Shown here: positions 6,957 to 30,291 of the stretch, piece by piece
Position numbering within the stretch: position 1 is the stretch's first letter
Layout of the letters: each line of letters begins with the position of its first letter
Source: an uncultured Candidatus Micrarchaeota archaeon
Lineage (GTDB): Archaea > Micrarchaeota > Micrarchaeia > Anstonellales > Bilamarchaeaceae
NCBI GenBank assembly: GCA_963804385.1
Contig: CAWDQD010000009.1
Span: 8,890-72,889 of the forward strand
Length of the DNA stretch: 64,000 nucleotides
Direction of reading: 5' to 3'
The notes under the pieces: model-generated
Seen by the model: the letters and a program-made list of their open reading frames with translations, nothing else
Databases searched by the model: none
What the model was told of the DNA's origin: nothing
Position numbers and translations under genes: made by a program

Positions 6957-7499
6957 ATGGTTACCATACGGCCTGCCCGCGCAAACGAATCCGGCGCGAT
7001 CCGCGGGCTGGTGGTGTCAGTCCTTAAGAGCGAAGGCATGTTCGACACTTTCTGGCACCTGGACGATTTGGATGACCCCGTGGCCGCCTACCGCGGAACC
7101 GGCGGGGAGTTCCTCGTGGCAGAAGAAGATGGGCATATCGTGGGTACCGCAGCATTCCATCCTCTTCCGCAAAAACTGGCTATCATCCGTCGCTTCTACG
7201 TGTCTGCCGGATTCAGGGGGAAAGGCGTTGGGCGGGAACTGCTTAGTCGCATTGAAGGGTTGTGCAAGGAGCGCGGAAACGCGCTTATAGTGGCGGTATC
7301 TGAACATGGCTTCAAGCGAGCCTTCGGCATCTATATCAAGGACGGCTTCGTGCCATTCAGGACCGAGCCGGAGAATTTCTTAGTCAAGTATCTGGCGCCT
7401 GGAGCTGATATCCCATGGCCACCCGGCAAGATGGCTAAAATGAACTGGTATTTCCAGTGGAAAGGCGATCGTTGGGTGCCGCTGGACGTTTGCGGATGA
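6957..7499 (+). CDS. GNAT-family N-acetyltransferase
   Basis: 180 aa. The acetyl-CoA-binding motif RGKGVGRELL lies in a GNAT-like context (IRRFYVSAGFRGKGVG). Confidence 0.75.
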   Translation: MVTIRPARANESGAIRGLVVSVLKSEGMFDTFWHLDDLDDPVAAYRGTGGEFLVAEEDGHIVGTAAFHPLPQKLAIIRRFYVSAGFRGKGVGRELLSRIEGLCKERGNALIVAVSEHGFKRAFGIYIKDGFVPFRTEPENFLVKYLAPGADIPWPPGKMAKMNWYFQWKGDRWVPLDVCG

Positions 7500-7540
7500 A
7501 CCCATCATCGTCGAGATGCCGCGGAAATGGATTTTCCCGC

Positions 7541-16974: not shown

Positions 16975-18115
16975 TTTCCTTCACCTTCCTGTGCTCCACG
17001 TACGTCAGTACCGTGACCGCATTTATGCCCCATGTGGCGAACATATCGCCGAAGATGCCCGCGAGGCATACCGCGGATATCTCATAGTATGTCGGGATGT
17101 GCGTGAGTATCGAGAGTATGAACAATCCTCCGAAAGACACGACTGCCGCCAGGCTCATTGTAAGGCCGGTCTTCATGGCATCGAAGGCATTATCGCGAGG
17201 CTCTCCTTTCCTCTTCACCAGCCTGGTAGTAAGGAGGATGTCCGTGTCGAGCGAGAAGCCCACCAGCATCAGCAGGGCCGCGAAGGAAGCCAGGGTCAGT
17301 TGGATGTGGAACAATCCCATGGCGCCCATTGCTATCACGACGTCGCAGAGCGCTCCGGTGAGCACCGCCAGGCTCGGGACTATCGTCCTGAAGAAAAGGA
17401 ATACGAGGAGGGCGCTGAGCAGTGCCGCCCATAAAGAAATTATCAGTATGCTGCTTATGAAGCTCGAAGAGAGCACTGGGCTCACTATCTGGATGGATAT
17501 GGAATCGTATTGCACCAGATTGCTCAGCGGTCCGGTGACCGAATCCTGGTAGTTCGAATAGACAGCATCGTATGATTCGGTGAACCTCTTCTGGAGGTCG
17601 TTCGTGCCGCTGATGTTCAGATCCGCTCTGTTCACCTTAGCGAGAGCGAACATCTGGTCCGAGATGTTGTCGAGCTGAGCTTTCTCCTGCATATACTGGC
17701 TATTATAGCTAGAATTCGTGTAAGCCTGGACCTCGAGCTGCGATACCTTGGGGAGAAGAGCATTGAAGCTCGTCTTGAGGCTCTCCGCTTCCACAAGATC
17801 CTTGCTCTGCGGGACCTCTATCTCGGTCTGATATCCCAATGTGGTGGGGAACGATTGCACGGTCGCGTCTATCCCTTCCGCAGCGAGCTGGCTCTGGAGC
17901 TGCGGCGCGTCCACGCTCTTGTTCATGGAGAGCGTTATCAGCGTGCCTCCCTGGAAATCCACACCCATCTTTATCGATGGTATGTAGAACAGGGATATGA
18001 CTATCAACAGTAGCGGCGCTATTGCTAATAGCTTGTAGTTCCCCTTGTAGATATTAGGCAACATCAGAATCAATAGGGGAAAATAGTACGATAACGCATA
18101 AAAACCCTCCCGCAA
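16961..18115 (-). CDS. secF: Protein-export membrane protein SecF
   Basis: 384 aa. GVDFQGGTLITL motif and a C-terminal multi-TM domain. Archaeal secF-secD order and overlap. Confidence 0.75.
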   Translation of the reverse strand: MREGFYALSYYFPLLILMLPNIYKGNYKLLAIAPLLLIVISLFYIPSIKMGVDFQGGTLITLSMNKSVDAPQLQSQLAAEGIDATVQSFPTTLGYQTEIEVPQSKDLVEAESLKTSFNALLPKVSQLEVQAYTNSSYNSQYMQEKAQLDNISDQMFALAKVNRADLNISGTNDLQKRFTESYDAVYSNYQDSVTGPLSNLVQYDSISIQIVSPVLSSSFISSILIISLWAALLSALLVFLFFRTIVPSLAVLTGALCDVVIAMGAMGLFHIQLTLASFAALLMLVGFSLDTDILLTTRLVKRKGEPRDNAFDAMKTGLTMSLAAVVSFGGLFILSILTHIPTYYEISAVCLAGIFGDMFATWGINAVTVLTYVEHRKVKENELV

Positions 18116-18196: not shown

Positions 18197-18308
18197 TGAA
18201 ATAAAATGGACTTGGGGGGACTCGCACCCCCGGCCTCTCCGATTCTCTGAACTTTTCGACGGGTTTTTCCCTAAAAAGTTTATGCGAACGGAGCGCTCTG
18301 CTGCTGAG
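18197..18308 (-). tRNA. tRNA-Ala(CGC) with ~39-nt intron at the canonical 37/38 position; non-canonical D- and T-loops
   Basis: Hand-folded from the minus strand. Acceptor GGGCTTG/CAAGTCC with G3:U70 (the Ala identity pair). D-stem GCTC/GAGC. Anticodon stem CTCCG/CGGAG. Loop TT-CGC-A is interrupted by TAAACTTTTTAGGGAAAAACCCGTCGAAAAGTTCAGAGAA. T-stem GGGGG/CCCCC. Discriminator A, then a T-run. The D-loop lacks GG19 and the T-loop reads TGCGAGT instead of TTCRAAT. Confidence 0.55.
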
Positions 18309-18321
18309 CTACAAGCCCGGG

Positions 18322-18400: not shown

Positions 18401-19141
18401 ATGGCAAGCAGGAAAAAAGAGAGCGATAAGGCGCCACAACGCAGGCCGCCCGAACCGCACAAAATAGGTCAAGGCGCGATTTTCCGAGATATAATACTCG
18501 GGGGTCAAGATGGGATCGTGAATATCCTAGGAATCATGCTCGGGGTTGCGACAGCCACAGGTTCGAGCCAGTTCGTCCTCCTCTCGGGCCTTGCAGCGAC
18601 ATGCGCAGAAAGCGTCAGCATGGCCGCAGTCGCGTATACGTCGAGCCGCGCCGAAGCGGAGCATTATCGAGCCGAAGTCGAACGCGAGAAATTCGAGATG
18701 AAGAGCCTCCCCGAAATAGAACGGCAGGAAATAAGGGATATCTACAGGGTCAAGGGATTCGAGGGGGAGCTCCTCGAGCAGATCGTGGATAAGATATGCT
18801 CTAAAGACGAAATCTGGCTGGACACAATGATGAGGGAGGAGCTGAAGCTCGAGAACCCAGAGGACGGGATGTCTCCTCTCAAGCGCGGCATCCTAGTTGG
18901 GGCAAGCGCACTTATCGGCTCGTTCATACCTATCGTGCCATTCATGGTCCTGGCTCCGCAGCAGGCGCTCCTCCTGGCTTTGGTGGCATCGCTCGCGATA
19001 CTGTTCATAGTGGGCGCCATCAAGAGCAATATGGCATCCGGAAAATGGCTTCGCGGCGGTCTCGAACTGATGCTGATCGGAGGCGCGGCAGCGGCAGCGG
19101 GATACATCGTGGGGTTGGTGTTCCAGATAAAAAGTCCATAA
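18401..19141 (+). CDS. VIT1/CCC1-family iron/manganese transporter
   Basis: 246 aa. GGQDGIVNILGIMLGVA...CAESVSMAAVAYTSS is the N-terminal VIT signature. A central cytoplasmic helical segment and a C-terminal TM bundle follow. Confidence 0.7.
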   Translation: MASRKKESDKAPQRRPPEPHKIGQGAIFRDIILGGQDGIVNILGIMLGVATATGSSQFVLLSGLAATCAESVSMAAVAYTSSRAEAEHYRAEVEREKFEMKSLPEIERQEIRDIYRVKGFEGELLEQIVDKICSKDEIWLDTMMREELKLENPEDGMSPLKRGILVGASALIGSFIPIVPFMVLAPQQALLLALVASLAILFIVGAIKSNMASGKWLRGGLELMLIGGAAAAAGYIVGLVFQIKSP

Positions 19142-19226
19142 TCTCTTTTTTAATCTTTCAAACACATACCCTTATAAAATGAATTTACACAAGTTTATAG
19201 GTACATAAACAAATGGGTGGATTATT

Positions 19227-22200
19227 TTGAAAAGGCGCGAGCTCTCGTGGAATAATTACGGTGATGCCAGGTCGATCCCTGGACTCAGCACCGCCTCAGC
19301 CGCGAGTATGGTTCTTAGGGCCCACCATCCGTTCGCGTTAGACAGGATTCCGGATTTCCGAAAAGAGAAGTACAACGCCCCGAGTGCTGATGGCATCAAC
19401 ACTCTGGTGCGCACGATACCCGGCAAGAACGGGTTCAGCCATCCTTCCCTAGAAGGCATGGCATTCGATCCCGACGACATCCGCAAGGCAACCGCCGCCT
19501 TGCGCGAAGCGGACGAATCCATATTCGTATCTAATCACCATGGCACTCCCAATGCTCCGGGAACTACGCTCGCCGCCCGGCTGATAGCCTCAGAGGATTT
19601 CAGGGCTGCAACAAGAAAAAAAGATCTGGACGGCCAATTGCGCATCTGCCTGGAGGAAATCATATTCGAGATATGGGTTTACAACCATACTACGCTCGGG
19701 GTGGATCCCGCTGATGCAGAACGCGACGTCAGGCTTGACATGTCAGATGCGAAATGCGCCATCGCGGAGCTCAAAGGGGGGCATGTAGAGACTCCGCTCG
19801 CCACGCAGCTCCATTCTATGTTCAGCTGGTCTGGCATGTCGCAGTTCCATCTCGCCATGCGGATACTGCTATCCTGGCGGTACCCGGATCGCGATCCAAA
19901 CGCGTCTCTGCACAAAGGCGCCCGCGCGGATCAATCCGGAGACACGGAGACCGAGCTTGAAGTATCCCAACTCCTAGATGTAAGCGATGGGACTCCAGCC
20001 AAAAGCGCGACCCACTCGGGTGCCCCGCCCATACCTCAAGAAGCCATTCCAGTTGAAATCACGCCAGAGATCGATTCGGATCAACTCATCTTCTTGGATC
20101 AACGTGAACCGGAGCCTGAGAAACCAGCAGACCCGCTCGCCCAAAGGTTCGGCGAATGCTTTACCAAACCCATAAATCGGGAGGGTATCGAGCAGCTGAG
20201 GCGACAACTGCGGGTCGATCTGGACGTGATAGCAGATCTCACAGATTCAGTATCCGATGCGAAGCGGCATAATATAGAAGCAGCGATGCCGATCGTGGAG
20301 CGGCTCATAGAAGAAGAGTGGCCTAGAATGAGGGGCATAGACTTCGATCTCCAAGATATCCCCGAATCCAAAACCGATGATGCCGGAACCAATCCAGTCA
20401 GGATGCGCCTCATGCAGAGTATGTCTGAAAGAGCACGATCGAGAATGGTAATGCATCTGGATTTTTTCGAGCATGATCCTAAAAACGAGAGATCGATAAA
20501 GTATCTTGCCGATCTGACACGCGCGATAATCGCATATGAGAAAACCTTGAGGAAACTGGCGTTCATGGACCCGACCAAGCCCATCAACCAGGTAGAGGAT
20601 GAAGCTCTGGCGCTAGGGCCCGGCATGATTAAAACAGGAAGAGTATTGGAATTCATTTCAGAAGGTGTGCTAGCCCCTCGTTTTGGTGAAGACCGTCCGG
20701 CCCCCAGGCGTGTTACTAAGGCAATGATGGACTCGCTCACACGCACTAATAGATATATGATAGCTCAGGTGGTGGGCGCCGAAGATGTCACTGATGGATC
20801 GCTATCCGTTTTCCTGAACATGGAGGCTGGCGTCAGGGAACTGCGGCTTCGGAATGTAGTGGCGTCAGCCTGGACCCAAGGAAATTGGAGGGAGGACGTC
20901 GCGCGATTCGATGCAGCCTGCATGGAGATATATGACAAATGCGGTCTTCCCCATTCAAAAATCCAAGAGCTCCGCATAGCGTTGTCAGATCCGTCCAACC
21001 TCTCAGAAGACCAACGTGAAATCATAGCATCTTTCTTCGGTATATCGCCTAGCCATCTCAAGCAGGAATATGCCCTTTCCTTCTACATCTGGTTGCGCGG
21101 AGAGCCCGAATCTCTAACAGACCACTGGAAGCGCGCATTCATGGCTCCGGAGCGACTGGAGGCCCTCAAGACCGCTATCATCAAAAAGAAACGGCTCAAA
21201 GCTGATGATCGGGTTATCCTCGCAAGGATACTGGGGAAAGAACCTAAATCCCTTTCGGGGGAGGATCTCGCGAATTCGGGTCTTGTGCAAGAACGCATAG
21301 ACGAGCTCTCGGCGTTCCGCTCGAAATGGTTCTCTGAAGATCGGAATGAGCGCTTATCGCAGTGGCGCAACGGGTTCAACGACCTTTTCACCGCGGCCAG
21401 CATGGCGCACAAGCTCAGGTTCGTTCCTGACGCATCTTATACTCCAGAGGAATCCGGTTTGCTCGCGGCCTTGGGCGGGAAGAGTTCTCCATCGGAGCTC
21501 ACTCCTGAAGATCTGGATAGGATCAGAAGGGATCTGGCCAAGCATGTAAGCATGAATGGAACGTATTATCAGCCGGCCATGCTCGGGTTCACTAGCATCG
21601 AGGATCAATTAGGCGCGGATTCGCTCCTTCTGGCAGCGCGCAGGCAAGCGATGTTCAACATCATGCTCGACGCCTTTTCGGTGGAGCGCGCGGATGTCAG
21701 GTCCGAGTTCGATGATCATTCCTTCGTCAGCGTGGCTGCGAAAGGAGTTTCCGAAGCCAATGAGGACTCATGCTCATCAGTACGCCTCACCCTGGCCGAT
21801 GGCCGTACCATCACCCTGGACGCGGTTTTCGATGGCGCCGGCGGCAAAATCCGTGGGGCGGAAGAAGGCGGCAGGACGAATGCCCAGCGCGCGAGCGCCA
21901 TAGCCAAGAACGTATTCGAGATCTCTGCAGCCGCAGGATGGATATCCACTCCGGAGGATGTGCGCCGCACGCTCGTCATGGCCGATCTTGCCATAGTATC
22001 AGAGCAGTTGCGGTCGAAGCAGCGCTCCGATGTGAACCGCGAGAACGACATGGCGACCACAGCATCGGTCACATTCATCAGCGGCAAAGAATTCTATGGC
22101 ATACACGCGGGGGACAGCGTCTGGAAAATCATGCGCAACGGGGAAGTCATGATGCAAAGCAGGCCCCATGACGCCATTTACCAGCTCCTATGCTCTGCCC

Positions 22201-22643
22201 ATTCCATGGTGGCAGATGAATGGAAAGCCGCGAACAGGAAAACCGAGGGTCTGGGTCCGGATGAGGCATCGGCGTTCGATCATGCTGTGGGGACCAAATT
22301 GGCAGAGCTGCGGGGATACGGCGGCGCGCTCGTGATGAGCGCAGTGGTCTCCACACTCGGCGACCCGACCCATATACACATCAATAACGAGGATCGGGAT
22401 CCCGGGCCAATCCTGCTGCAAGATGGCGACCTGGTTCTCAACGGCTCCGACGGGCTCCACAAGCGCGTTTGCGATCACGAGATCATAACGATTGTCAAGG
22501 AGGCGCAGGGGGACCTGGCTCTCGCCTCCGGGCATCTCGCGGCCCTGGCAGACGGGCGCATGCCCAGACGCTGCAGCTGCGAGGTCTCAGGAGTCGAGGA
22601 TGACAGGACGTTCGTGCTCAGGAAGGTGGAAGACACACATTAA
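19227..22643 (+). CDS. Large (1138 aa) protein with C-terminal PP2C/PPM-type Ser/Thr phosphatase domain; ~800-aa N-terminal region of unknown function
   Basis: C-terminal motifs are AKGVSEANEDS, TLDAVFDGAGG (DGxGG), IHAGDSVW (GDSR-like), LNGSDGLHKRV (DG) and EDDRTFVLRKV. The start is uncertain: TTG at 19227, or ATG at 19308. Confidence 0.6.
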   Translation: MKRRELSWNNYGDARSIPGLSTASAASMVLRAHHPFALDRIPDFRKEKYNAPSADGINTLVRTIPGKNGFSHPSLEGMAFDPDDIRKATAALREADESIFVSNHHGTPNAPGTTLAARLIASEDFRAATRKKDLDGQLRICLEEIIFEIWVYNHTTLGVDPADAERDVRLDMSDAKCAIAELKGGHVETPLATQLHSMFSWSGMSQFHLAMRILLSWRYPDRDPNASLHKGARADQSGDTETELEVSQLLDVSDGTPAKSATHSGAPPIPQEAIPVEITPEIDSDQLIFLDQREPEPEKPADPLAQRFGECFTKPINREGIEQLRRQLRVDLDVIADLTDSVSDAKRHNIEAAMPIVERLIEEEWPRMRGIDFDLQDIPESKTDDAGTNPVRMRLMQSMSERARSRMVMHLDFFEHDPKNERSIKYLADLTRAIIAYEKTLRKLAFMDPTKPINQVEDEALALGPGMIKTGRVLEFISEGVLAPRFGEDRPAPRRVTKAMMDSLTRTNRYMIAQVVGAEDVTDGSLSVFLNMEAGVRELRLRNVVASAWTQGNWREDVARFDAACMEIYDKCGLPHSKIQELRIALSDPSNLSEDQREIIASFFGISPSHLKQEYALSFYIWLRGEPESLTDHWKRAFMAPERLEALKTAIIKKKRLKADDRVILARILGKEPKSLSGEDLANSGLVQERIDELSAFRSKWFSEDRNERLSQWRNGFNDLFTAASMAHKLRFVPDASYTPEESGLLAALGGKSSPSELTPEDLDRIRRDLAKHVSMNGTYYQPAMLGFTSIEDQLGADSLLLAARRQAMFNIMLDAFSVERADVRSEFDDHSFVSVAAKGVSEANEDSCSSVRLTLADGRTITLDAVFDGAGGKIRGAEEGGRTNAQRASAIAKNVFEISAAAGWISTPEDVRRTLVMADLAIVSEQLRSKQRSDVNRENDMATTASVTFISGKEFYGIHAGDSVWKIMRNGEVMMQSRPHDAIYQLLCSAHSMVADEWKAANRKTEGLGPDEASAFDHAVGTKLAELRGYGGALVMSAVVSTLGDPTHIHINNEDRDPGPILLQDGDLVLNGSDGLHKRVCDHEIITIVKEAQGDLALASGHLAALADGRMPRRCSCEVSGVEDDRTFVLRKVEDTH

Positions 22644-22725
22644 TTGACCAAAGCAAACATTTATATATTGTATCCCACTAAATTATATCATAAGACACAT
22701 TAATCCAAACCTTGAGGTGAAATGA

Positions 22726-23718
22726 GTGGCTGAAAAACAAACTGGTCCAGTGGCGGAAAAAAAGCCGAGCATAAAACAGATTGCGGCTCAACTACGAGAG
22801 GATTTCGGAAAATTAGGCGGTCCTCTCGCAGATGCTTTGCTCATTGTGGCAGCGCAAGTCGAGGCCAATAAGGCCGATCTAAAGAGCCAAGTCGAGACCG
22901 ATACAAGCGAGATGCGCGGATACGCAAACGGAGCACGGACTTCGGCAGGTAATGCAGCTGCATCTGCTGAACAAACTAAGGTTTCACTCGCAACAATGCA
23001 ATCGGAGTATGCTGCGTTCATCGCTCAATTGGAAACCGCAGGAGATGCAATCGGGTCAAGTGCTGCCAAAGCCGAGGCAGCGGCTATAGATGCGAAATCT
23101 TCATTGGAAACAATACAAAAGCAAACGACTCCTCTTACGGATGCCATTGAGACCTTGACTCATGGCGAAGCTAAAGGTGTTGGAGCTCTCCTGCAGATTC
23201 TTCAAGCTGTCGGTAAGACTCCAGATATAGTCGATGCCGCAGTAAAGAAAGTTATCTACATAGATGCAGAGATCACAGAAACTGGTGACGGCAAACAAAC
23301 CGCCGGGCAGGAAGGAGATAAGGCTATGGCCGGTGCAGAGAGCACAGGAAAAGCTCCAGCCAAAAAAATCGTTAGGTTGGAAGGAGATAAGGCGATGGCC
23401 TATATCCGGTACGGCTTGTCTTTTGTATCTCTGACAGCTGGCAATGCGGTCAAATCAGCGAATAAAGCTGTCGAATTAGCGAATGACGCTAAATCTGGTC
23501 TAGATGCGCTCGGTGCCGCTGTCGCAGAAGGATTCAAAGCGGTCGATGCCAAACTCGCTCTTATAATGTATGATCTGGCTCAAGCCGGAATAAACTTCCA
23601 GGAAGAGTACGTGGCTGGAATCGAGCAACCGAGTTATGAGGCTCCAAAAACAAAATCAGCAGCTCCACAGGAGCCTGCTGGTGAACCAACATCTAATAAA
23701 GGTGATTCTGATGGCTAA
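22726..23718 (+). CDS. Alanine-rich, predicted coiled-coil hypothetical protein
   Basis: 330 aa. GTG start with GAGGTGA SD and an upstream TATA (ACATTTATATATTG). 26% Ala, internal repeat EGDKAMAxxxxxG. No TM segment. Confidence 0.5.
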   Translation: MAEKQTGPVAEKKPSIKQIAAQLREDFGKLGGPLADALLIVAAQVEANKADLKSQVETDTSEMRGYANGARTSAGNAAASAEQTKVSLATMQSEYAAFIAQLETAGDAIGSSAAKAEAAAIDAKSSLETIQKQTTPLTDAIETLTHGEAKGVGALLQILQAVGKTPDIVDAAVKKVIYIDAEITETGDGKQTAGQEGDKAMAGAESTGKAPAKKIVRLEGDKAMAYIRYGLSFVSLTAGNAVKSANKAVELANDAKSGLDALGAAVAEGFKAVDAKLALIMYDLAQAGINFQEEYVAGIEQPSYEAPKTKSAAPQEPAGEPTSNKGDSDG

Positions 23719-24760
23719 AGGAATTGATTTGACTGCGCTTGTCGCAGCGGCGAAGGCAAGAACTGGAAAACCAGGAACGGATCTGAAAGGCAAAGCCCCG
23801 CTCACAGATGCAACTGTGCAGACTAGGGCTCCAGCTTTTGCAGCTGACGGGTCTGAAGATGCAACCCGCACTGTTGACCTCACGGCGACAGCTAAAGCAA
23901 GCGCCGACGCGACCATTGAAACCCCAGTAGCTCAAATCCAGGCACCTTTTATGGAATCAGCTTCTGCACAGACAGATGCTCCTCCAAAGGTAGCACATCC
24001 GGCCCCTCCAACGCAAACACAGGAGATGCGTGCATTCCCTTCTTCAGAAGAAGTTCAAGCTGAAACGTCATCAACGTCCTCAGACGGGGCCAGCGTACAT
24101 CAGACAAGTGCTCCTGCTGAGGAATCTGCATCGGAGAGCGCAGGTCCAACGGAAAAACCGCGGACACTTGACGAAGCAATCAGAAAAATTGATGATCTCC
24201 ACGCTCTAATCGGCAACTTATTTGAATTAGTTGTGGGAGCAATGCCGCTAGATGCCGTGAAGAAAATCATTCCGGCCATAAGAGCAAGCGGCGGACTGGT
24301 CAGCATCGTCGATGATGCGACAACCCTTCTCGTTGGCGCAGATGCCGAAAACGTGCTGGCACCATATGCGCAAGGGGTGCGCGATGGCGCGGCGAGCATT
24401 TTGGACGAAATGAATTTCCAAAGCCCGGACCATGTAGAGATCCTCAGGACGGCTGTCATAAGTTTGCTTCTCGATCCTGATCTCGATAGCGACGATGTGA
24501 AAATGTTGGCAGAAACCCGCGGTGCTGACCACGTCAAACAGGTCATAGCAGGCCTGGCAGACGACCCGAGCATCATAAGATCGATTTTGATCAAAGATGC
24601 GGCAGCAAAAAGCGGAATCGAGCCATCGCAGGTAACTGATCCAAAAGATGACGACGTGGCCAAGCAAGCCGCCCAATGGGTGGAAACCGAAACCGTAAGG
24701 TTCACTGAGGCAGCAAAAACGTGTATCGATTCTTGGGCTCAGATAATTGGAGGGGATTGA
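23711..24760 (+). CDS. Hypothetical protein, Ala/Thr/Pro-rich disordered N-terminal half plus globular C-terminal half
   Basis: The start ATG overlaps the upstream stop (ATGGCTAA). 349 aa. No recognised motif. Confidence 0.5.
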   Translation: MAKGIDLTALVAAAKARTGKPGTDLKGKAPLTDATVQTRAPAFAADGSEDATRTVDLTATAKASADATIETPVAQIQAPFMESASAQTDAPPKVAHPAPPTQTQEMRAFPSSEEVQAETSSTSSDGASVHQTSAPAEESASESAGPTEKPRTLDEAIRKIDDLHALIGNLFELVVGAMPLDAVKKIIPAIRASGGLVSIVDDATTLLVGADAENVLAPYAQGVRDGAASILDEMNFQSPDHVEILRTAVISLLLDPDLDSDDVKMLAETRGADHVKQVIAGLADDPSIIRSILIKDAAAKSGIEPSQVTDPKDDDVAKQAAQWVETETVRFTEAAKTCIDSWAQIIGGD

Positions 24761-24762
24761 AT

Positions 24763-25989
24763 ATGGTTAAACTAAGTGATTTGAAGAAGGGTTCGAAGCC
24801 TGATACGAAAGATGCTAAGCCAGGTGTCGCTCCATCAGTGGCATTTGCTGATAGGACTGTTCCGGAAAGTCCGAGAGCTGCTCCAGTAGCACCTGCCAGC
24901 GAGCAAGAGATAAGCGTGAGCGATTTATCACTCCAGGCAGATGTTCCAGACATGCCAGCATCGCCACCAGAGGACCGGACTGTCAGGGAGACCCCGGCTC
25001 CAGTGGCCGTGGCGCCAACTGACGATGTCAGGGGTAGACTGGCGGCAAGATTAGCAAGGCCAGCTCCTGTGCAATCAGGCACTGGATTCGCAGAAACCGT
25101 GGCAGCAAGGTCCACACCTTCAGAACTCCCAGCAGTTAATGAACCCGTAGAAGAGCCCCCTGAACTCCCGGTAGCCGCATTACCCCGATCCGGTGGCAAT
25201 GCTAAATTGCCTAAGGAAAAGAAATGGGTAAAGCCGGTCATTTATCTCGCCGCGGCTGCCGCGATAGCGATAATCGCCATGTATCATGGCTGTGGCAAAA
25301 AAGTCGTCCCTCCGGCTACAAAGCCATGCGCGGATCCGACTCCAAAGACCTGCGATCTGCGCAGCAGCCCGTTCGCCATGTTCTTCGATGAGAAAACATG
25401 CGGTTACTGTGGCGAGACCGACCCAGATGGTCGTTTTGTCAGGAAGGACTGGATGACCCCGGCGAACTGCCCAGTGGTGTTCTCATGCGGAAACGGCAAA
25501 GTCGACAAGAACGAACCCTACCCGGTTTATGTGAAGGGTAAGGACGGCACATTCGAATTGAGTGTCACCAGCGTGAGCGAATCGTGCAATCCCAAAGCCC
25601 CGAACTATTGCGAGGTTGATTGCCCGAAACCAAAACCAAAGACACACGCGGCTCCGAAGCCCGTTGCAGACAAACCGGTGCATGCAGACTTGCCGGATTG
25701 CGCAACAACCGACAAGACCAGGATGAGGGATGCCATGACCCAGATAAGGGGCAGCATGTTGGATGTAAGGGGGGGTGTTGACACTAAACACGCCGATGTG
25801 GTTGGAATCAAATTAGATGTCAGCTACAAGGCCTTGATAGAGTCAACTGGCGACGTGTCATTGGTATCTGCGTCCACGCAGCAGGGTTATGATATCAAAG
25901 GTCTGGTTAAGATGGGTTCAGTCAAGGTGACCAGCGGCGCTGCGGATTGCGAATTCAAGTATACCACGTCGATTCCGGCCTCTAACTAA
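24763..25989 (+). CDS. Type-II membrane protein: Pro-rich cytoplasmic N-term, single TM, Cys-rich ectodomain and conserved ~95-aa C-terminal domain (paralog of 27482..28648)
   Basis: GGAGGGG SD 6 nt upstream. TM WVKPVIYLAAAAAIAIIAMYH. The ectodomain has CGNGKVDKNE plus many Cys. C-terminus DCATTDKTRMRDAMTQIRGSM...VSYKALIESTGDVSLVSAS...ADCEFKYT is about 50% identical to the C-terminus of the 27482 gene. Confidence 0.5.
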   Translation: MVKLSDLKKGSKPDTKDAKPGVAPSVAFADRTVPESPRAAPVAPASEQEISVSDLSLQADVPDMPASPPEDRTVRETPAPVAVAPTDDVRGRLAARLARPAPVQSGTGFAETVAARSTPSELPAVNEPVEEPPELPVAALPRSGGNAKLPKEKKWVKPVIYLAAAAAIAIIAMYHGCGKKVVPPATKPCADPTPKTCDLRSSPFAMFFDEKTCGYCGETDPDGRFVRKDWMTPANCPVVFSCGNGKVDKNEPYPVYVKGKDGTFELSVTSVSESCNPKAPNYCEVDCPKPKPKTHAAPKPVADKPVHADLPDCATTDKTRMRDAMTQIRGSMLDVRGGVDTKHADVVGIKLDVSYKALIESTGDVSLVSASTQQGYDIKGLVKMGSVKVTSGAADCEFKYTTSIPASN

Positions 25990-26100
25990 TCTTTTCTTCT
26001 TTTTTCAATTCTTATCCTCTTCTCTCCGTCGCATCAGAGAGATATGTTTATAAACTGTTTTACACAAATTTTAATTAACTAAAACATATTAGGTGGGGTA

Positions 26101-27480
26101 ATGGGGTTCTTAAATCAAGCACGGAGCGGTCAGATTGCGCCCAGCTCCAAGCAACCCATGAAACCGATGAACCACCCACTCGCCGAAGCGCTGCAATCGC
26201 CCAACGATGGGCCCGACACGGAAGTGCCTACGATCAAGAGGCCAGCCCGTCATGCGCCACATCCGCAAGCAAAGGAGCAATCCAAAGACGAGCTCGGGAT
26301 ATATGCTTTCAGGACGACTTTGAAGAAGAGCGGCCTAAGCAGCCAGCAGATATACGAAGAGGCAGACAGGTTCTTCAGAACGGATCCGCGCGTGGATGCC
26401 TTCATACGAAAACACGGCGATAATCTGTCAAACATGATAGACGAAGCGATATCAGCCGTGCGCAGAGGCGAAGCACCTACCGGGGACATGCTGCTCGCGC
26501 TTCATATGAAAGACCTCATCGAATTCATACGTGAATGCGAAGACAATGCCCGAGCTTTCGGAGACATCCACGCTGCGATTGAGCAGCCTACCACCGGGAA
26601 AGTCGATTCGTTGCCCCTTCAAGCGATAGAAGCTCCCATATCGCCCGAGAAAGATACTAAGAAAAAAGAATTGACCGCCGGGGAGGCGGTCTTGCGTTTC
26701 ATCACGAACCCGGCCATCCGTAATATCGCAGAGGCCGCGTTGTTCGGCATAGCACTCCATGTGGTGGGGGGCTTCCAGGAGGTCTCATACGGGATCGACA
26801 AGGCGCTCCACTCGCTCGATCTTCCAGCAATGGACCTCCATACCGGTTTTCTGGAAAACGTGTATGCTCTGGTTACATTGTCCATCTCTTTTGCCACGGA
26901 GCTGATCCGGGGTAGGGGCGCGCGTGATACGAATGCGAAATACAAGCGGGTAGTCGACGAGCTACCGGGTACGGTCAAGAAGGCGTACCGCGAGGTGCTC
27001 TCCACCCTTTCCTCTATAGCCCGGGGTCATGCACAAGGGAATAAACAGCTCGAAGCGCTCAGGGCAGCCTTAGAGCGAGAATCGTTCTTCTATCAGATAG
27101 ACGTGCTCCATCATCATTCTTACGGAGTGCCTCTCTATGCGGCTATAGATTGCTCCGGACTGAATCCGAAGGTGCCGGTGCCAGAGGCGATCTCGCTCGC
27201 AGAAGCCAAGATCATGAGGCCGAAGATCGAGCAGCTGGCTATGCATATCGATAATGACCCGCTGCGACGGGAGGCATTCAAATCCTTGTACAATACCGAC
27301 GCGGTTTTCAGGAGGAAAGCAGACGAGTTCCTGGCTGTAGACGACGAGAAGCGTTTCTTGAATTTCAAGCATTTCGCGGAAATATGCAGGCCGATCAAGA
27401 AGGTCGCGGACCCGGAGCGGTTCATCAAAGCACTCAGGGGCGACCTCATCTCCATGAACGGCCTGCCTGCGGTTGATTGA
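26101..27480 (+). CDS. Hypothetical protein (459 aa)
   Basis: AGGTGGGG SD and an upstream TATA (ATGTTTATAAACTG). No recognised domain. It is the first gene of a two-gene operon; the downstream gene starts 1 nt after its stop. Confidence 0.5.
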   Translation: MGFLNQARSGQIAPSSKQPMKPMNHPLAEALQSPNDGPDTEVPTIKRPARHAPHPQAKEQSKDELGIYAFRTTLKKSGLSSQQIYEEADRFFRTDPRVDAFIRKHGDNLSNMIDEAISAVRRGEAPTGDMLLALHMKDLIEFIRECEDNARAFGDIHAAIEQPTTGKVDSLPLQAIEAPISPEKDTKKKELTAGEAVLRFITNPAIRNIAEAALFGIALHVVGGFQEVSYGIDKALHSLDLPAMDLHTGFLENVYALVTLSISFATELIRGRGARDTNAKYKRVVDELPGTVKKAYREVLSTLSSIARGHAQGNKQLEALRAALERESFFYQIDVLHHHSYGVPLYAAIDCSGLNPKVPVPEAISLAEAKIMRPKIEQLAMHIDNDPLRREAFKSLYNTDAVFRRKADEFLAVDDEKRFLNFKHFAEICRPIKKVADPERFIKALRGDLISMNGLPAVD

Positions 27481-27481
27481 C

Positions 27482-28648
27482 ATGAAAACATACTCGAGGA
27501 TACTTGGGCAGAAGAGCATCGCTGGAAGCGTATTGACGTCCTTGCCAGCAGTTGCTTGCACTGCCGCAGTGCTTTTCTGGAGATGCAGCCCTACCGTTGA
27601 GAAGCGGATGGATGCCGACCAACCCAGGAACGGCGATCATGTCTGCGAGCAGAGCGAAGCGTATCCCAAGAAAATGGGTCCTGACCGCCTGTTCACCAGC
27701 GAGAGGAATCCGAATTACTCCAAGTCCGATTGCCATGATGGCGATGGGGTCTATGATAATGCCCTAGAAGGCCCGGATTCCATAGATTCGCGGCTGAAAG
27801 CGGCACGCGAGCAACCATGCATACCCGGAACCCCTGCCCCGGGCACGACGATAAGCCGTCCCATGATATCAGCGAGGCCAGGGGAGATGGTAATCCGTTC
27901 TGAAGAGGAATGGACGCAGATGGTACGCGATCCATCCGTCCTGCCTCAGAGCATATACTATCCCGCATCAGGAAACGACGGCTTCAAGCGCCCCTGGCTC
28001 TATCAAGAGACCTGCGATACCAGTCCGGATGTCCCAGATTGCGCACCTAACGTGAACGGTAAATGCTATTGCGCGAACCATGCGAGCTGCCCGCCCCGTG
28101 CGTCGACCTGCAAAGACGGGAAATTGGAACGCGGAGAGCAATGCGATCCCACTTACAAGAAAGCGCCCCGCGGCGGTTGCGACGAGGGTTCCAGATGCAC
28201 CAACCAGTGCAAATGCATTCCTGCTAGCGAATGCGGAAACGATAAGGTGGAAGATGGGGAGGACTGCGACCCTCCTGGTTCTTCCTGCACGACCAGCGGG
28301 GGGCAAGATGGCAAGTGCAGTTCGCATTGCACGTGCAGGGGGAAACAGAATCCCGCCATGCCGGACTGCAAACAAGTCGATAAATCCAGGGCGAGGGATG
28401 CAATGACCCAGATAAGGAACAGCATGCGGGACGCACTTGACCGGATTTACCAGCAATACCCTGGCATGTCGAAGCCCCTGAAGGTCAGCTATCTGGCACT
28501 GGTCGAATCGACCGGAGATGTGTCGCTGAAGTCTGCGTCTGCGCAGGGCAAAAGCGTGAAAGGCCTGGTGGGCATGAGTTCGGTCAAGGTGAACAACAAT
28601 GCCACCGCAGACTGCGAATTCACGAACACCGAATCCCTCGCGAAGTGA
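27482..28648 (+). CDS. Secreted/membrane-anchored cysteine-rich repeat protein with conserved C-terminal domain (paralog of 24763..25989)
   Basis: N-terminal hydrophobic signal anchor (SIAGSVLTSLPAVACTAAVLFW). Two Cys repeats (GEQCDPTYKKAPRGGCDEGSRCTNQCKC and CGNDKVEDGEDCDPPGSSCTTSGGQDGKCSSHCTC) resemble the CGNGxxExGExCDDG...C repeat of DUF4215/myxo-type, as I recall it. The C-terminus DCKQVDKSRARDAMTQIRNSM...VSYLALVESTGDVSLKSAS...ADCEFTNT matches the 24763 gene. Confidence 0.5.
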   Translation: MKTYSRILGQKSIAGSVLTSLPAVACTAAVLFWRCSPTVEKRMDADQPRNGDHVCEQSEAYPKKMGPDRLFTSERNPNYSKSDCHDGDGVYDNALEGPDSIDSRLKAAREQPCIPGTPAPGTTISRPMISARPGEMVIRSEEEWTQMVRDPSVLPQSIYYPASGNDGFKRPWLYQETCDTSPDVPDCAPNVNGKCYCANHASCPPRASTCKDGKLERGEQCDPTYKKAPRGGCDEGSRCTNQCKCIPASECGNDKVEDGEDCDPPGSSCTTSGGQDGKCSSHCTCRGKQNPAMPDCKQVDKSRARDAMTQIRNSMRDALDRIYQQYPGMSKPLKVSYLALVESTGDVSLKSASAQGKSVKGLVGMSSVKVNNNATADCEFTNTESLAK

Positions 28649-28690: not shown

Positions 28691-29386
28691 ATGGCAAAAG
28701 GCAGGGTATCTGAACCGAGAAACATCCTCCTGGACATAGACGACACTCTTTTTCCGTCCACGGAGTTCTCCTCCCTTGCGCGACGGAACGCATTGAACGC
28801 CATGATAAGCATGGGATTGGACTCGGATTTCGAGACCATGCACTCAAAGCTCGAAGCCATCATCTCGAGGCATGGCTCGAATTACCAGAACCATTTCGAC
28901 GATCTGTGCAAGGAACTGGGGGTCAGACGTCCTGGCCGTTATATCGCCGCGGCGGTCGCCGCCTACCATGATACGAAAACCGCCATCCAGCCGTTCCCTA
29001 AGGCCCCGCTAACCCTGATGAGGCTCAAACAGGACGGCCACAAGCTCTATGTCGCGACGAACGGGAATTCCATAAAGCAGTGGGACAAGCTCATCAGGCT
29101 CAGGCTAGCGCTCTTTTTCGATGATGTATTCGTGTCCGAAGAGCTCGGCGTGCAGAAGGGGAAGGTATTCTACGGCAAAATCCTCAAGGCCCTGGGCTCA
29201 AAACCGCACGAATGCGTCATGGTCGGGGACCGGGAAGACCTCGACATCGTCCCTGCTAAAGAGGTAGGCATGAAGACCGTCCGTTTCATCTCAGGAAGGT
29301 ACGCTAAAGGAGCGACCATCGCGGATCGCACCATCAAAGACATCGGCGACCTGGCGATGGCGATAAGGAGATTGCCAGGTCCATAA
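28691..29386 (+). CDS. HAD-superfamily hydrolase
   Basis: 231 aa. Motif I LLDIDDTLF (DxDxT), motif III K, motif IV GDREDLDI. Confidence 0.7.
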   Translation: MAKGRVSEPRNILLDIDDTLFPSTEFSSLARRNALNAMISMGLDSDFETMHSKLEAIISRHGSNYQNHFDDLCKELGVRRPGRYIAAAVAAYHDTKTAIQPFPKAPLTLMRLKQDGHKLYVATNGNSIKQWDKLIRLRLALFFDDVFVSEELGVQKGKVFYGKILKALGSKPHECVMVGDREDLDIVPAKEVGMKTVRFISGRYAKGATIADRTIKDIGDLAMAIRRLPGP

Positions 29387-29421: not shown

Positions 29422-30291
29422 ATGTATACCCGGCTGATGTTGATCGGTTTGATAGCGTTCACGCTCCTCCTGGCAGGCTGCTCGAGCAACCGCACTACTG
29501 TAACGTGCAAGGAGAACAAGGATTGCCAATCCTGGCAGTTCTGCAACACGAGCGCATCGTCGCCTGTCTGCACCACACTCGCCGGATACTGCAACTCGAA
29601 CGACGTATGCACCCAGAAGGACCCGCTCATGACATGCGACCTGCAAACGACCCACCTCTGCGTCTATTCGGGGGGCAAATGCAGGACCAACGCCAACTGC
29701 GATAACTGGCAGGTGTGCGATTTGAACCAGACGTGCAGGGCGGCCCCTGGCTACTGCGATTCAGATTCCCAGTGCAACCCTGTCTTCGAGTACTGCAACC
29801 CATCATCGCACCAATGCGGCCCAGCGCCTGGGTACTGCGCTTCGGACACCGATTGCGATTCCTGGAAAAAATGCGACGTCCCAAGCAAGCACTGCATCCT
29901 GATACCTGGCATGTGCGATCTCGATACGGACTGCCAGTCCTGGCAGACCTGCGACGCTAAAACCCATGCATGCGGGCCCAAGCCGGGCTATTGCATCGGG
30001 GATGACGATTGCACGGCATGGGAAAAATGCGATGTCAGCACGGACAAATGCGTCGCGAGGCAGGGCTACTGCATGGCGCAGAACGAATGCACCGATTGGC
30101 AGGACTGCAGCGGCGATACGCACCAGTGCGTCGCCCGCAGAGACCGCTGCGGCACAACCTCGGACTGCGGTTCGTGGGAGTATTGCGACGTCCCCAACCA
30201 CAACTGCAAAGCGCAGATCGGTTTCTGCGATGCGAACACGGATTGCGTCTCCGGCGAGGTCTGCAACCAGCAGACCCATGTCTGCCAATGA
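29422..30291 (+). CDS. Lipoprotein composed of ~9 tandem ~28-aa cysteine repeats
   Basis: Lipobox LLLAGC after an N-terminal hydrophobic segment. Repeat unit C-x2-3-[DN]-C-x-[SN]-W-[QEK]-x-C-[DN]-x3-x-x-C-x3-PGYC, e.g. CASDTDCDSWKKCDVPSKHCILIPGMC, CDLDTDCQSWQTCDAKTHACGPKPGYC, CIGDDDCTAWEKCDVSTDKCVARQGYC. Confidence 0.6.
   Translation: MYTRLMLIGLIAFTLLLAGCSSNRTTVTCKENKDCQSWQFCNTSASSPVCTTLAGYCNSNDVCTQKDPLMTCDLQTTHLCVYSGGKCRTNANCDNWQVCDLNQTCRAAPGYCDSDSQCNPVFEYCNPSSHQCGPAPGYCASDTDCDSWKKCDVPSKHCILIPGMCDLDTDCQSWQTCDAKTHACGPKPGYCIGDDDCTAWEKCDVSTDKCVARQGYCMAQNECTDWQDCSGDTHQCVARRDRCGTTSDCGSWEYCDVPNHNCKAQIGFCDANTDCVSGEVCNQQTHVCQ
29480..30270 (+). repeat. Tandem ~84-nt coding repeats (Cys-repeat lipoprotein)
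   Basis: Recurrent nucleotide blocks such as ...GATTGCCAATCCTGGCAGTTCTGCAACAC..., ...GACTGCCAGTCCTGGCAGACCTGCGACGC..., ...GATTGCGATTCCTGGAAAAAATGCGACGTC..., ...GATTGCACGGCATGGGAAAAATGCGATGTC.... Confidence 0.6.

Follow-up and report, generated by a model that had tools for sequence, protein, structure and literature searches.

Six genes lie on the plus strand of the window (the whole stretch of DNA that was analysed, 64 kb), namely a giant gene with a PP2C-like domain (g0), two coiled-coil genes (g1 and g2), the membrane-protein gene g3, the orphan g4 and the signal-anchored g5, and they are followed by a gene for a HAD hydrolase. The organism is a tiny, symbiotic-type archaeon of the Micrarchaeota (DPANN), and its tRNAs are intron-bearing. 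The features of the locus are as follows:

19139-19226, plus strand: leader and putative promoter of g0, with TATA-like TTATAAAA (19172-19179), TTTACACAA (19184-19192) and GGGTGG ahead of the TTG start
19227-22643, plus strand: g0, a 1138-aa protein, predicted cytoplasmic, with an orphan N-terminal region of ~840 aa and, at its C-terminus, a putative Ser/Thr phosphatase domain of PP2C type
22644-22725, plus strand: conserved promoter and 5' leader of g1-g2-g3, with TTTATATA (22660-22667) and GAGGTG (22714-22719)
22726-23718, plus strand: g1, a 330-aa Ala-rich coiled-coil protein with a GTG start (translation and orthologue alignment)
23711-24760, plus strand: g2, 349 aa, in which an N-terminal AAAKAR helix and a disordered central part precede a conserved, helical domain at the C-terminus
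24763-25989, plus strand: g3, a 408-aa single-pass membrane protein, predicted N-in/C-out (translation and Kyte-Doolittle hydropathy scan)
25681-25986, plus strand: first copy of the shared C-terminal domain (CTD), g3 residues 307-408 (BLASTP, alignment, hhalign, tblastn)
25990-26100, plus strand: g3-g4 intergenic region, with a T-rich tract, TTTATAAA (26047-26054), TTTACACAA (26059-26067) and AGGTGG (26091-26096)
26101-27480, plus strand: g4, a 459-aa orphan with an N-terminal MGFLN/D motif, then a disordered, variable stretch and a conserved domain of ~400 aa
27482-28648, plus strand: g5, a 388-aa signal-anchored protein (translation, Kyte-Doolittle scan, orthologue alignment)
28349-28645, plus strand: second copy of the CTD, g5 residues 290-388 (AlphaFold2 and alignment)
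28691-29386, plus strand: HAD-family hydrolase (PF00702, E 9e-18)

The open reading frames of g1 to g5 were confirmed at these positions, within the two operons of the initial annotation. The unit, however, starts one gene before the operon proposed there, with g0, which is always present. The division of the locus into two transcription units is plausible, in view of the T-rich tract after g3, TTTATAAA and AGGTGG before the ATG at 26101, and a g3-g4 gap that is retained in 6/6 genomes. In this gap, the T-rich tract (a putative archaeal terminator) follows the g3 stop codon and is in turn followed by a nearly invariant block of ~50 nt. TTTACACAA occurs twice in 64 kb, upstream of g0 and of g4, where 0.16 occurrences are expected; the g0 leader is nearly identical in genome L001. 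The g1-g2-g3 leader has a mean column identity of 82% across six genomes and is among the few stretches that blastn still aligns to the most distant relatives. No stable RNA fold was predicted for this leader (z about 0) or for the g3-g4 intergenic region. Such strong conservation of the promoter and leader blocks would imply regulated expression as two units.

A conserved cluster in a small Micrarchaeota clade

Synteny comparison showed that the order of g0 to g5 and the HAD hydrolase is identical in 5/5 fully comparable relatives, in all of which the g0 orthologue lies immediately upstream of g1, and a partial cluster is found on two further fragments. In six genomes, 29-45 nt separate g5 from the HAD hydrolase gene with no gene in between, while one extra gene lies between them in the L015 fragment. 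Database and metagenome searches confine the cluster to a tiny subclade of Micrarchaeota, in which its site between VIT1 and HAD/AP-endonuclease genes is retained. The suspicion that the cluster is strain-variable does not hold, as order and content are kept in 5/5 relatives with enough contig; variation among relatives is seen in the sequence of the CTD and in how many cysteine repeats g5 has (0-2). Judged by this comparison of sequences, the locus is a lineage-specific, conserved six-gene cluster with an adjoining HAD hydrolase, and it belongs to the syntenic core genome of a small Micrarchaeota clade, not to a variable island. The cluster had also been described as a duplicated module of two operons, but the paralogy is limited to the CTD of ~95 aa, and g4 shows no relationship to either g1 or g2.

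That the five proteins g1 to g5 are orphans was borne out, with no Pfam, NCBIfam, PHROGs or PADLOC family for any of them and no family match in a PDB sequence search. Orphan status might suggest an island of mobile, viral or defence type, or artefactual similarity and reading frames, and the gene callers of public assemblies do split g3/g5 into calls of 203 aa and 96 aa plus an antisense ORF of 179 aa. Against this stand zero PHROGs matches for the cluster proteins, a sole PADLOC match that is a coiled-coil artefact (E 0.002), a GC content of 52-54%, like that of the flanks, and the conserved syntenic position; in addition, orthologue dN is well below dS and the two CTDs match each other at E 2e-24. 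Within the limits of sequence analysis, an island or artefact is thus refuted, and its probability is negligible.

Proteins encoded by the cluster

For g0, the hydropathy scan predicted no transmembrane (TM) helix. Its putative phosphatase domain gives weak matches: PF13672 scores 20.4 bits (E 4e-4), below the curated cut-off of 24; PF00481 scores 15.2 bits against a cut-off of 20.3; NCBIfam Stp1 scores 40.5 bits (E 2e-10) against a cut-off of 230; and Stp1-type/PP2C phosphatase chains in the PDB match at E 0.008-0.03. Weak PP2C_2 matches were also found in the g0 orthologues of L001 and L005, and visual inspection of the translation shows NED, FDGAGG, AGDS, GSDGL and EDDRT in the order expected of PP2C motifs.

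The genes of the two coiled-coil proteins g1 and g2 overlap, with the g2 start lying 8 nt before the end of the g1 stop, and the orthologues of both have Pfam matches to generic coiled-coil families only; no PDB relative was found for g2. The GTG start reported for g1 is common to three orthologues, with a GAGGTG Shine-Dalgarno motif 6 nt before it. The EGDKAMA motif is indeed present twice, as the product of a window-specific insertion, but the alanine content stated as 26% was measured at 19.7%.

The g3 protein begins with MVKLSDLKKG and a P/A-rich cytoplasmic tail of ~150 aa, followed by a K-rich stretch, a TM helix at residues 155-173 (25225-25281, Kyte-Doolittle), a cysteine-rich ectodomain at residues 177-290 (25291-25632), a P/K-rich linker and the CTD; an identical protein is on record (P0006). 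In g5, a short N-terminus precedes a TM helix at residues 13-31 (27518-27574), in which C-T-A-x-V-L-F-x-R is invariant across orthologues, and then come a conserved cysteine-rich N-domain at residues 45-206 (27614-28099), two cysteine-rich repeats (28109-28216 and 28232-28336) and the CTD. The membrane anchors assigned earlier were thus found again as one hydrophobic helix each in a Kyte-Doolittle scan, which is not a dedicated predictor. Because this single TM helix precedes 12 cysteines in g3 and 24 in g5, the CTD is probably outside the cell, as the description of both as surface proteins had supposed.

Repeats of the CGNxKVExGExCD type had been ascribed to both proteins, whereas the window holds just two matches to C-x3-K-x-E-x-GE-x-CD, at 28109 and 28232, and both lie in g5. 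The g3 ectodomain is distinct and conserved and has ten cysteines, and only its start, CGNGKVD, resembles the repeat; accordingly, hhalign found nothing in common between g3 and g5 outside the CTD. The g5 repeats resemble, at the level of the motif, the Myxococcus-type cysteine-rich repeat (TIGR02232 / DUF4215, PF13948; CGNGxxExGExCD...), as they start C-G/K-N/D-x-K-V/L-E-x-G-E-x-C-D and hold six cysteines in about 35 aa. Unlike that repeat, however, their copy number ranges from 0 to 2 among g5 orthologues and g3 lacks them, and neither g3 nor g5 matched TIGR02232 / PF13948 in Pfam and NCBIfam at E up to 0.1.

The g4 protein gave no Pfam match in any orthologue, and a search of 5.8 billion proteins with a metagenome scan returned cluster members only. 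It had been regarded as soluble, but its conserved domain contains paired hydrophobic segments (about residues 200-275; 26698-26925), so that it may be membrane-associated, the pair possibly forming a membrane hairpin. The N-terminal motifs of g3 and g4 are like each other and co-vary by genome, as MGFLDD/MGFLDD, MRKLSDI/MRRLSDI and MGILDGLK/MGILDGLK.

A C-terminal domain and its concerted evolution

The similarity between the C-terminal ends of g3 and g5 withstood proper alignment, with 56% identity over 98 aa in BLASTP (E 2e-24) and 99.7% probability over 94 columns in hhalign (E 9e-26), and tblastn found exactly two copies in the window. It had been stated that the domain has no name, and no Pfam, NCBIfam or PDB sequence match was found; from 1.84 billion cluster representatives, its profile retrieved no more than 20 proteins. 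According to these searches, the CTD of ~95 aa is a previously undescribed domain in which two otherwise unrelated surface proteins end. AlphaFold2 modelled the domain alone as a confident helix and three-strand fold (pLDDT 82.8, pTM 0.72), with the helix predicted at 12-36 and strands at 44-52, 57-65 and 89-97 in domain numbering, and in the full-length g5 model the CTD reaches pLDDT 76-91, whereas the rest of g5 is below 50. Two cysteines are invariant in the CTD alignment.

No significant structural neighbour of the CTD was found by Foldseek; among its best-ranked PDB matches, none of them significant, the named folds that recur most often are the C-terminal domains of TonB/TolA (clan TolA-TonB-Cterm; 6sly, 7zc8, 6fip, 9dc4, 6s3w and 1lr0). 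The layout is similar as well, with an N-terminal anchor, a Pro/Lys-rich spacer and an alpha/beta domain of ~95 aa (~90-100 aa in this clan) that contacts, or in g3 and g5 would contact, a partner beyond the membrane, and hhalign aligns the beta-hairpin VSYLALVESTGDVSL of the CTD with VKVKFDVTPDGRVDN of TonB. It could therefore be imagined that the CTD is a remote TonB/TolA-type domain and that g3 and g5 are TonB-like transducers of energy or force reaching an outer layer, but this is improbable. The Foldseek superpositions have a best E of 0.24 and TM-scores of 0.28-0.45; hhalign against E. coli TonB ~143-239 gives 0.75% probability over a 15-residue hairpin only; and both CTDs and five distant CTD-like proteins gave no match to TonB_C (PF03544) or NCBIfam tonB_Cterm at E up to 10, a search in which HMMER speed filters may drop very weak matches. 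Furthermore, the order of secondary-structure elements differs from that of TonB, with the long helix first in the CTD, an invariant cysteine pair brackets the domain, no ExbB/ExbD- or TolQ/TolR-like protein was found among the cluster proteins with Pfam and NCBIfam, and the archaeon that encodes it has no outer membrane.

It has also to be considered whether the CTD acts as a C-terminal signal for sorting, secretion or attachment, comparable to bacterial T9SS CTDs or archaeal PGF-CTERM, that a single machinery would recognise and that would be removed or modified later. The domain does form the very end of two exported proteins that are otherwise unrelated; there is a third CTD-bearing protein in L015, and small stand-alone CTD proteins exist (P0013). 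However, a sorting signal is expected to be conserved, and the CTD is the fastest-evolving part of both proteins, which are already anchored at their N-terminus. The last 100 residues contain no hydrophobic segment and no basic tail as in PGF-CTERM, the model is a helix with a three-stranded sheet and not the beta-sandwich of a T9SS CTD, no family match was found, and no sortase-like or secretion gene was detected within the cluster by Pfam and NCBIfam. This explanation is therefore very improbable, even more so than kinship with TonB.

The pair had been called co-evolving, and the g3 and g5 CTDs are in fact mutual nearest relatives in 5/5 genomes with two in-frame copies. Within-genome identity is 59, 89, 82, 76 and 37%, and the best cross-genome values are 52, 64-67, 26 and 24%. 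At the DNA level, the similar tracts are 300-340 nt long, are 78-93% (about 90%) identical and end at the stop codon, and the two copies in L005 are 93% identical despite assembly frameshifts. The dS of the CTD pair within a genome is 0.18-0.29 in L001, L003 and L006 compared with 0.77-3 between genomes, and in L001 and L003 the converted tract appears to have overwritten the g5 cysteine repeats with the g3 linker. In the window and L008, dS of the pair is saturated at about 1.4 and the within-genome excess is modest, which suggests that conversion is episodic. Meanwhile, the CTD diverges quickly between genomes (15-68% identity, versus 55-81% for the g5 N-domain), and its dN is 2-5 times higher than that of the rest of the ectodomains, although dN/dS is below 1, with no sign of diversifying selection. 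The closer relationship of CTDs within than between genomes, together with the low within-genome dS, indicates that recurrent gene conversion between g3 and g5, about 2.7 kb apart, keeps this fast-evolving domain similar within most genomes.

Long-lasting concerted evolution has been described for duplicated genes of prokaryotes, such as the two copies of mtrA in methanogens (PMC4632066), and has been surveyed more widely in such genes (PMC6053082). As outlined in these two sources, paralogues of one genome resemble each other more closely than orthologues of different genomes do, in several lineages, which is attributed to repeated gene conversion, and the same pattern is seen here. Unlike the mtrA case as it is outlined there, a single domain (a tract of ~300-340 nt) is homogenised in two otherwise unrelated genes, and this domain is the fastest-diverging part of g3 and g5.

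A proposed link between surface contact and Ser/Thr signalling

The association of a PP2C-type protein with membrane proteins resembles the bacterial Stp1/PknB modules, which comprise a PP2C phosphatase, Hanks kinases and membrane receptors: the best named match of the g0 domain is Stp1, and Hanks kinases are encoded nearby in three cluster genomes, as adjacent pairs in L008 and L015 and at 13529-15124 in the window. The linkage in the window is weak, as the kinase lies 4 kb from the cluster with SecDF and VIT1 genes between. Unlike Stp1, g0 is 4-5 times longer, has the orphan region of 840 aa and scores far below the family cut-offs; unlike Stp1/PknB modules, the cluster has no PASTA or FHA domains, and no kinase is an always-adjacent integral member.

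The reading preferred here, to which we assign a probability of roughly 40%, is that the cluster builds a membrane-spanning complex in which surface contact is coupled to Ser/Thr phospho-signalling. Gene order suggests that the six products may associate in one complex, in which g3, with its long cytoplasmic tail, and g5, with its short N-terminus, would be two membrane arms and the two CTDs their membrane-distal tips. The tips might form a pair, or else both might bind a single partner that changes rapidly, for which a host cell-surface molecule or the cell's own S-layer is a candidate. The N-terminal motif shared by g3 and g4 may dock both arms on a scaffold of the coiled-coil proteins g1 and g2 and on g0, and such docking would couple surface contact to phospho-signalling, with the Hanks-type kinases encoded nearby.

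A different and rather unlikely explanation is that g3 and g5 are stalks tying the S-layer to the membrane, with the CTD as the S-layer-binding module; both stalks would have to fit one fast-evolving lattice protein, which would explain CTDs that are matched and yet variable. Anchor, spacer, distal globular domain and concerted evolution fit this explanation equally well. The stalk protein SlaB has a C-terminal anchor and a coiled coil, in contrast to g3 and g5, whose anchor is N-terminal and whose ectodomains are cysteine-rich, and no sequence relationship between SlaB and g3/g5 was detected. A preprint on the Micrarchaeota S-layer leaves open how the S-layer protein is anchored and raises the possibility that, as in Sulfolobales, a further protein is required as a stalk anchored in the membrane; the SlaB-type stalks cited there have in common with g3 and g5 that they are extracellular spacers, fixed in the membrane and bearing an interaction region at the far end (10.1101/2021.04.28.441871). 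However, the cluster is found only in a very small subclade, whereas the preprint searches for the S-layer in Micrarchaeota at large and generalises to them in its title (10.1101/2021.04.28.441871). In addition, no S-layer gene was identified adjoining the cluster, and S-layer stalks leave the PP2C protein, the coiled-coil proteins and the long cytoplasmic tail unexplained.

Taken as a membrane-spanning complex, as preferred above, the cluster is a candidate cell-contact device, that is, a complex that would serve in surface contact or as a receptor and be linked to Ser/Thr phospho-signalling, as far as can be deduced from its genes. More speculatively, it might be a previously unknown, Micrarchaeota-specific host-contact machine in which matched, hypervariable tips set the recognition of a partner surface and relay it through the docking motifs to the scaffold and the giant PP2C protein, with the CTD representing a new fold family. 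If this were true, gene conversion would keep the CTD pair matched while it diverges between lineages, and the fold of the CTD would be one that is also used, stand-alone or in tandem, in a few other organisms.

Gene cluster, relatives and genomic setting

The six genes g0–g5 lie on the forward strand of the window, and the start codons chosen for them match the N-termini of the orthologues.

Genes of the cluster and the gene 3′ of it
19227-22643, +: g0, 1138 aa, giant protein with a PP2C-like domain
22726-23718, +: g1, 330 aa, GTG start, coiled-coil protein
23711-24760, +: g2, 349 aa, coiled-coil protein
24763-25989, +: g3, 408 aa, membrane-anchored Cys-rich protein
26101-27480, +: g4, 459 aa, orphan protein
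27482-28648, +: g5, 388 aa, membrane-anchored Cys-rich protein
28691-29386, +: HAD hydrolase, 3′ of g5

A search of 5.8 billion proteins found five relatives of g5, two of g3 and, by profile, three of g4. The sole species-representative genome with a g5 relative was that of the uncultured Candidatus Micrarchaeota archaeon MFD01689.bin.2.62 (one locus in a scan of genome contigs), whose contig is collinear with the window between VIT1 and GMP synthase, a distance of over 20 kb; a metagenome scan with the g4 profile returned no contigs beyond those already known. The order PP2C giant–g1–g2–g3–g4–g5–HAD is kept in all five contigs carrying a g5 relative, with a BLASTP orthologue for every gene, and two fragments holding parts of the cluster (L015 and L016) represent at least two additional genomes. 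The earlier idea of a strain-variable cluster does not agree with this constancy; the conserved order, together with the fragments, shows that the cluster is core genome of a small clade and not a strain-variable island. What varies among the relatives is the number of Cys repeats in g5 (0, 0, 1, 2, 2 and 2 copies among six orthologues), the length of the disordered tails and the sequence of the CTD, the ~95-aa C-terminal domain common to g3 and g5.

In public assemblies, g3 and g5 are often miscalled, which has concealed the family in protein databases. For instance, the long-read contig L005 has frameshifts (7258-7784), the start is truncated in the public call of L008 (about 4490-5075), and in L017, a public contig with the same sequence as the window, the calls for g3 and g5 (1602-2889 and 5258-5548) consist of 203- and 96-aa fragments and a 179-aa antisense ORF. 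The GC content across the cluster region is 52–54%, the same as in the flanks, and contigs from four public assemblies or sequencing runs match the window at 100% identity; a look for population variation found none, the four other contigs of the same population all being 100% identical to the window. This population is present in Microflora Danica samples (ERZ25039480, ERR11594402). That the cluster is a mobile element or an artefact is the least probable of the explanations considered, with next to no weight given to it. Two tRNA genes were detected with Rfam (18207-18318, −, 112 nt; 44646-44765, −, 120 nt), and ARAGORN in bacterial mode reported no tRNA in the window; going by their length, both presumably carry introns. 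Such introns are typical of archaea, and the window DNA is archaeal.

In the flanks, a Hanks-type Ser/Thr kinase is encoded at 13529-15124 (−; Pkinase E 9e-56), and two kinases of 600–700 aa flank the cluster in L008 and in L015. The window kinase is adjoined by an 819-aa protein without a Pfam match (11028-13487, −), and SecD/SecF lie at 15235-18115. On the other side, a 289-aa protein (29422-30291, +) matching Pfam DUF5885 (E 1e-9) begins with a lipobox-like segment (LLLAGC) and contains some ten GYC-x2-D-x-DC-x-W-x-CD repeats. Its gene is at most the third one downstream of the cluster in all genomes readable there (seven) except L005, and the protein's 60–68% amino acid identity to L008 and L015 is far above the conservation of the cluster proteins. 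Farther away, a HerA/TraG-like P-loop ATPase (52756-54339, +; DUF87 E 6e-16) is located two genes upstream of an 852-aa protein without a Pfam match (55649-58207, +); in L005, a DUF87 protein is directly downstream of the HAD gene.

It had been proposed that g1–g3 and g4–g5 form two transcription units, and this is plausible in view of promoter-like elements before g1 and g4 and a T-rich tract after g3. Upstream of g1, a putative TATA box, TTTATATA (22660), is followed by GAGGTG; 3′ of the g3 stop, the T-rich tract is followed by a second one, TTTATAAA (26047), and by AGGTGG directly before the g4 ATG, and the remaining gene junctions overlap or are spaced by 1–2 nt. The leaders of g1 (22644-22725) and g4 (26035-26100) are the best-conserved DNA of the cluster, with a mean column identity of 82% over six genomes in the former and a nearly invariant block of ~50 nt in the latter; they are detectable by blastn in the most distant relatives, unlike most of the coding sequence, and are nearly invariant across six genomes in which synonymous positions of the genes have reached saturation. 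No structured RNA was predicted in the leaders (z-scores 0 to +1.45), and they are therefore regarded as promoter/operator DNA with open ribosome-binding regions. In addition, the 64-kb window has only two copies of the 9-mer TTTACACAA, upstream of g0 (19139-19226) and of g4, where 0.16 occurrences are expected and a count of two was reached in 2 of 100 shuffles; it may be a common operator, a candidate site for a regulator.

Cluster proteins and the common C-terminal domain

The C-terminal region of g0 is PP2C-like, with matches that are below curated cut-offs (PF13672, E 4e-4; NCBIfam Stp1, 2e-10; PDB Stp1 chains, 0.008–0.03), and the usual PP2C metal-binding motifs are readable by eye; its first 840 residues gave no match. 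For g1, g2 and their orthologues, only generic coiled-coil matches were obtained (Pfam, NCBIfam, PHROGs and PADLOC for the full proteins, Pfam for the orthologues), while g3–g5 matched no family in these four libraries, and profiles of g1–g5 found nothing among PDB sequences. The alanine content of g1, previously put at 26%, was measured as 19.7%. A window-specific insertion of ~22 aa in g1 (residues ~203-235, window about 23330-23400) gives rise to a second copy of EGDKAMA, which is single in all g1 orthologues in the alignment. No Pfam match was found for g4 or its orthologues; in four of six orthologues, its conserved pair of hydrophobic segments is above the TM threshold.

The single TM helix ascribed to each of g3 and g5 was recovered in a Kyte-Doolittle scan (residues 155-173 and 13-31, respectively). 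The helix of g3 is preceded by a K-rich stretch and a 150-aa P/A-rich tail, while that of g5 has seven invariant residues, which hints at contacts within the membrane. Past the helix there are 12 cysteines in g3 and 24 in g5, and these counts suggest disulfide-bonded ectodomains. The Cys repeat C-x3-K-x-E-x-GE-x-CD, which the initial annotation placed in both proteins, was matched only twice in a six-frame regular-expression search of the window, both times in g5; the g3 ectodomain is of its own conserved type, with ten cysteines.

The paralogy of the two CTDs is well supported (BLASTP 56% identity over 98 aa, E 2e-24; profile–profile probability 99.7% over 94 columns), and tblastn finds exactly two copies in 64 kb. 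Since hhalign of g3 against g5 found nothing in common outside the CTD and, by the same method, g4 is not homologous to g1 or g2, the duplication concerns one domain and not, as had been supposed, the operons. A third family member is located 3′ of g5 in L015 (457-1329), from the higher-GC relative GCA_040754495.1; its 290 residues comprise a short N-terminus, a TM helix, an ectodomain of the g3-like CGYCG/CGNG type and a CTD, and the CTD-bearing set can therefore expand.

An alignment of eight CTD sequences has three invariant positions, two of which are cysteines close to the two ends of the domain. AlphaFold2 on this alignment gave a model with a mean pLDDT of 82.8 and a pTM of 0.72, in which a long helix precedes a beta-hairpin and a third strand; when g5 was modelled at full length, the CTD is the sole confident part, and the N-domain and repeats are unusable. 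As initially claimed, the CTD has no name: it matches no family in Pfam or NCBIfam, even at E up to 10; its profile had no match among PDB sequences, and no Foldseek hit in PDB or BFVD reached E 0.001. The best Foldseek hit in PDB was a TonB C-terminal domain (E 0.24, TM 0.28), and several TonB/TolA C-terminal domains were within the top 50; hhalign against the E. coli TonB domain gave a probability of 0.75%. A TonB-like transducer is improbable, and TonB is a lead for the g3/g5 CTD on layout only. That the CTD is a sorting signal appears still less probable.

When 1.84 billion cluster representatives were searched exhaustively with the CTD profile, 20 proteins were returned at E up to 0.001. 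About eight of them are g3 and g5 proteins of the cluster itself, several are repetitive sequences and false positives, and a few look like genuine distant members. The distant CTD-like proteins include a lipoprotein-like protein of 165 aa and two in which the domain is present as a tandem pair; one of the latter also has a signal peptide and TPR repeats and is encoded next to a transposase. Three of these proteins (P0013 on L010, P0016, and P0021 on L011 and L012) are on short contigs with a GC content of 60–65%; the neighbours of P0013 and P0021, a helicase-associated/endonuclease gene and a transposase, are uninformative, and the source organisms may be bacterial. Taken together, the profile search and the family searches indicate that the CTD is rare and unnamed.

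Concerted evolution within the cluster

The CTDs of g3 and g5 are mutual closest relatives in every genome with two readable copies, which agrees with the co-evolving module first suggested. The identity within genomes is 59% in the window and 89, 82, 76 and 37% in the others; across genomes, the CTDs of this comparison are 15–67% identical. Between genomes the CTD is the fastest-changing part, with 15–68% identity compared with 55–81% for the g5 N-domain, a dN two to five times higher and dN/dS below 1. Comparison of the g3 and g5 copies by blastn shows discrete tracts of 300–340 nt with 78–93% identity that end at the stop codon. Two frameshifts, which are probably assembly errors, interrupt the g3 copy of L005; it nevertheless shares 93% identity with the g5 copy. 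In L001, L003 and L006, dS between the CTD copies is 0.18–0.29, while between orthologues it is 0.77–3; therefore, homogenisation takes place at the DNA level, by gene conversion, and not solely through selection on the protein. In the window and L008, dS between the copies is saturated (about 1.4), and conversion is old there, the copies still being slightly closer than orthologues.

The g5 proteins of L001 and L003 are without Cys repeats and have a g3-like linker instead (HGKPAATV vs HAKPAATV). Because this linker is inside the conversion tract, it is probable that a long tract overwrote and erased the repeats. Rapid change between lineages, paired with conversion of a single domain inside each genome, is a pattern that usually marks interaction surfaces.

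Meanwhile, g3 and g4 have a common N-terminal motif, M-x-x-L-[SDN]-[DQG]-[LIA]-[KR] (24763-24792 and 26101-26130), which co-varies within genomes and is nearly identical in L005 (MGFLDD/MGFLDD), L006 (MRKLSDI/MRRLSDI) and L008 (MGILDGLK/MGILDGLK); the pair in the window is MVKLSDLK/MGFLNQAR. The motif is possibly another element that conversion or co-evolution keeps matched, and might serve as a docking peptide. The tails of g3 and g4 are rich in Ser/Thr. Thus, g3 combines a g4-like N-terminus with a g5-like C-terminus, a makeup that suggests two parallel arms of one assembly.

Proposed function

The products of the cluster could form a membrane-spanning assembly in which g3 and g5 would be two surface arms ending in matched CTD tips, and a possible membrane-hairpin protein, cytoplasmic coiled-coil scaffolds and the phosphatase would be the other parts. 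The tips would either touch each other like-with-like or both fit one fast-changing partner, as is expected from fast divergence together with within-genome homogenisation; in a DPANN archaeon, the obvious candidates for such a partner would be a host cell surface or the archaeon's own S-layer. We favour a contact or receptor complex coupled to Ser/Thr phospho-signalling, at a probability of about 0.4. The more specific proposal, that the cluster is a machine with which a DPANN archaeon recognises its host through a hypervariable pair of tips matched by conversion, is doubtful. The main rival, in which g3 and g5 tether the S-layer, is rated equally low; the open question of how the S-layer is anchored in Micrarchaeota (10.1101/2021.04.28.441871) speaks for it. 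Both this tether and the receptor complex are more likely than a TonB-like transducer, a sorting signal, or a mobile element or artefact. A merely structural role, as for an S-layer tether, would narrow the interest, though the cluster would then still inform research on the archaeal envelope.

Surface proteins that are membrane-anchored and disulfide-rich, a signalling partner of the PP2C kind and concerted evolution of paralogues (PMC6053082, PMC4632066) are known in kind. All five orphan families and the CTD are, by the searches made, undescribed in the libraries used, and we found no paper on them and no account of the cluster in the literature. The g3/g5 pair is also a tidy example of two genes, unrelated elsewhere, in which conversion affects one domain only.

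Attachment to other cells is the way of life of DPANN archaea; to our knowledge, the molecules that make and sense this contact are almost unknown. Five ‘hypothetical proteins’ now become a defined conserved unit with clear parts, namely two surface arms, a new and confidently modelled tip domain, a common cytoplasmic motif for putative docking, a PP2C-like phosphatase and strongly conserved promoters, and the cluster offers concrete targets for study in Micrarchaeota enrichments.
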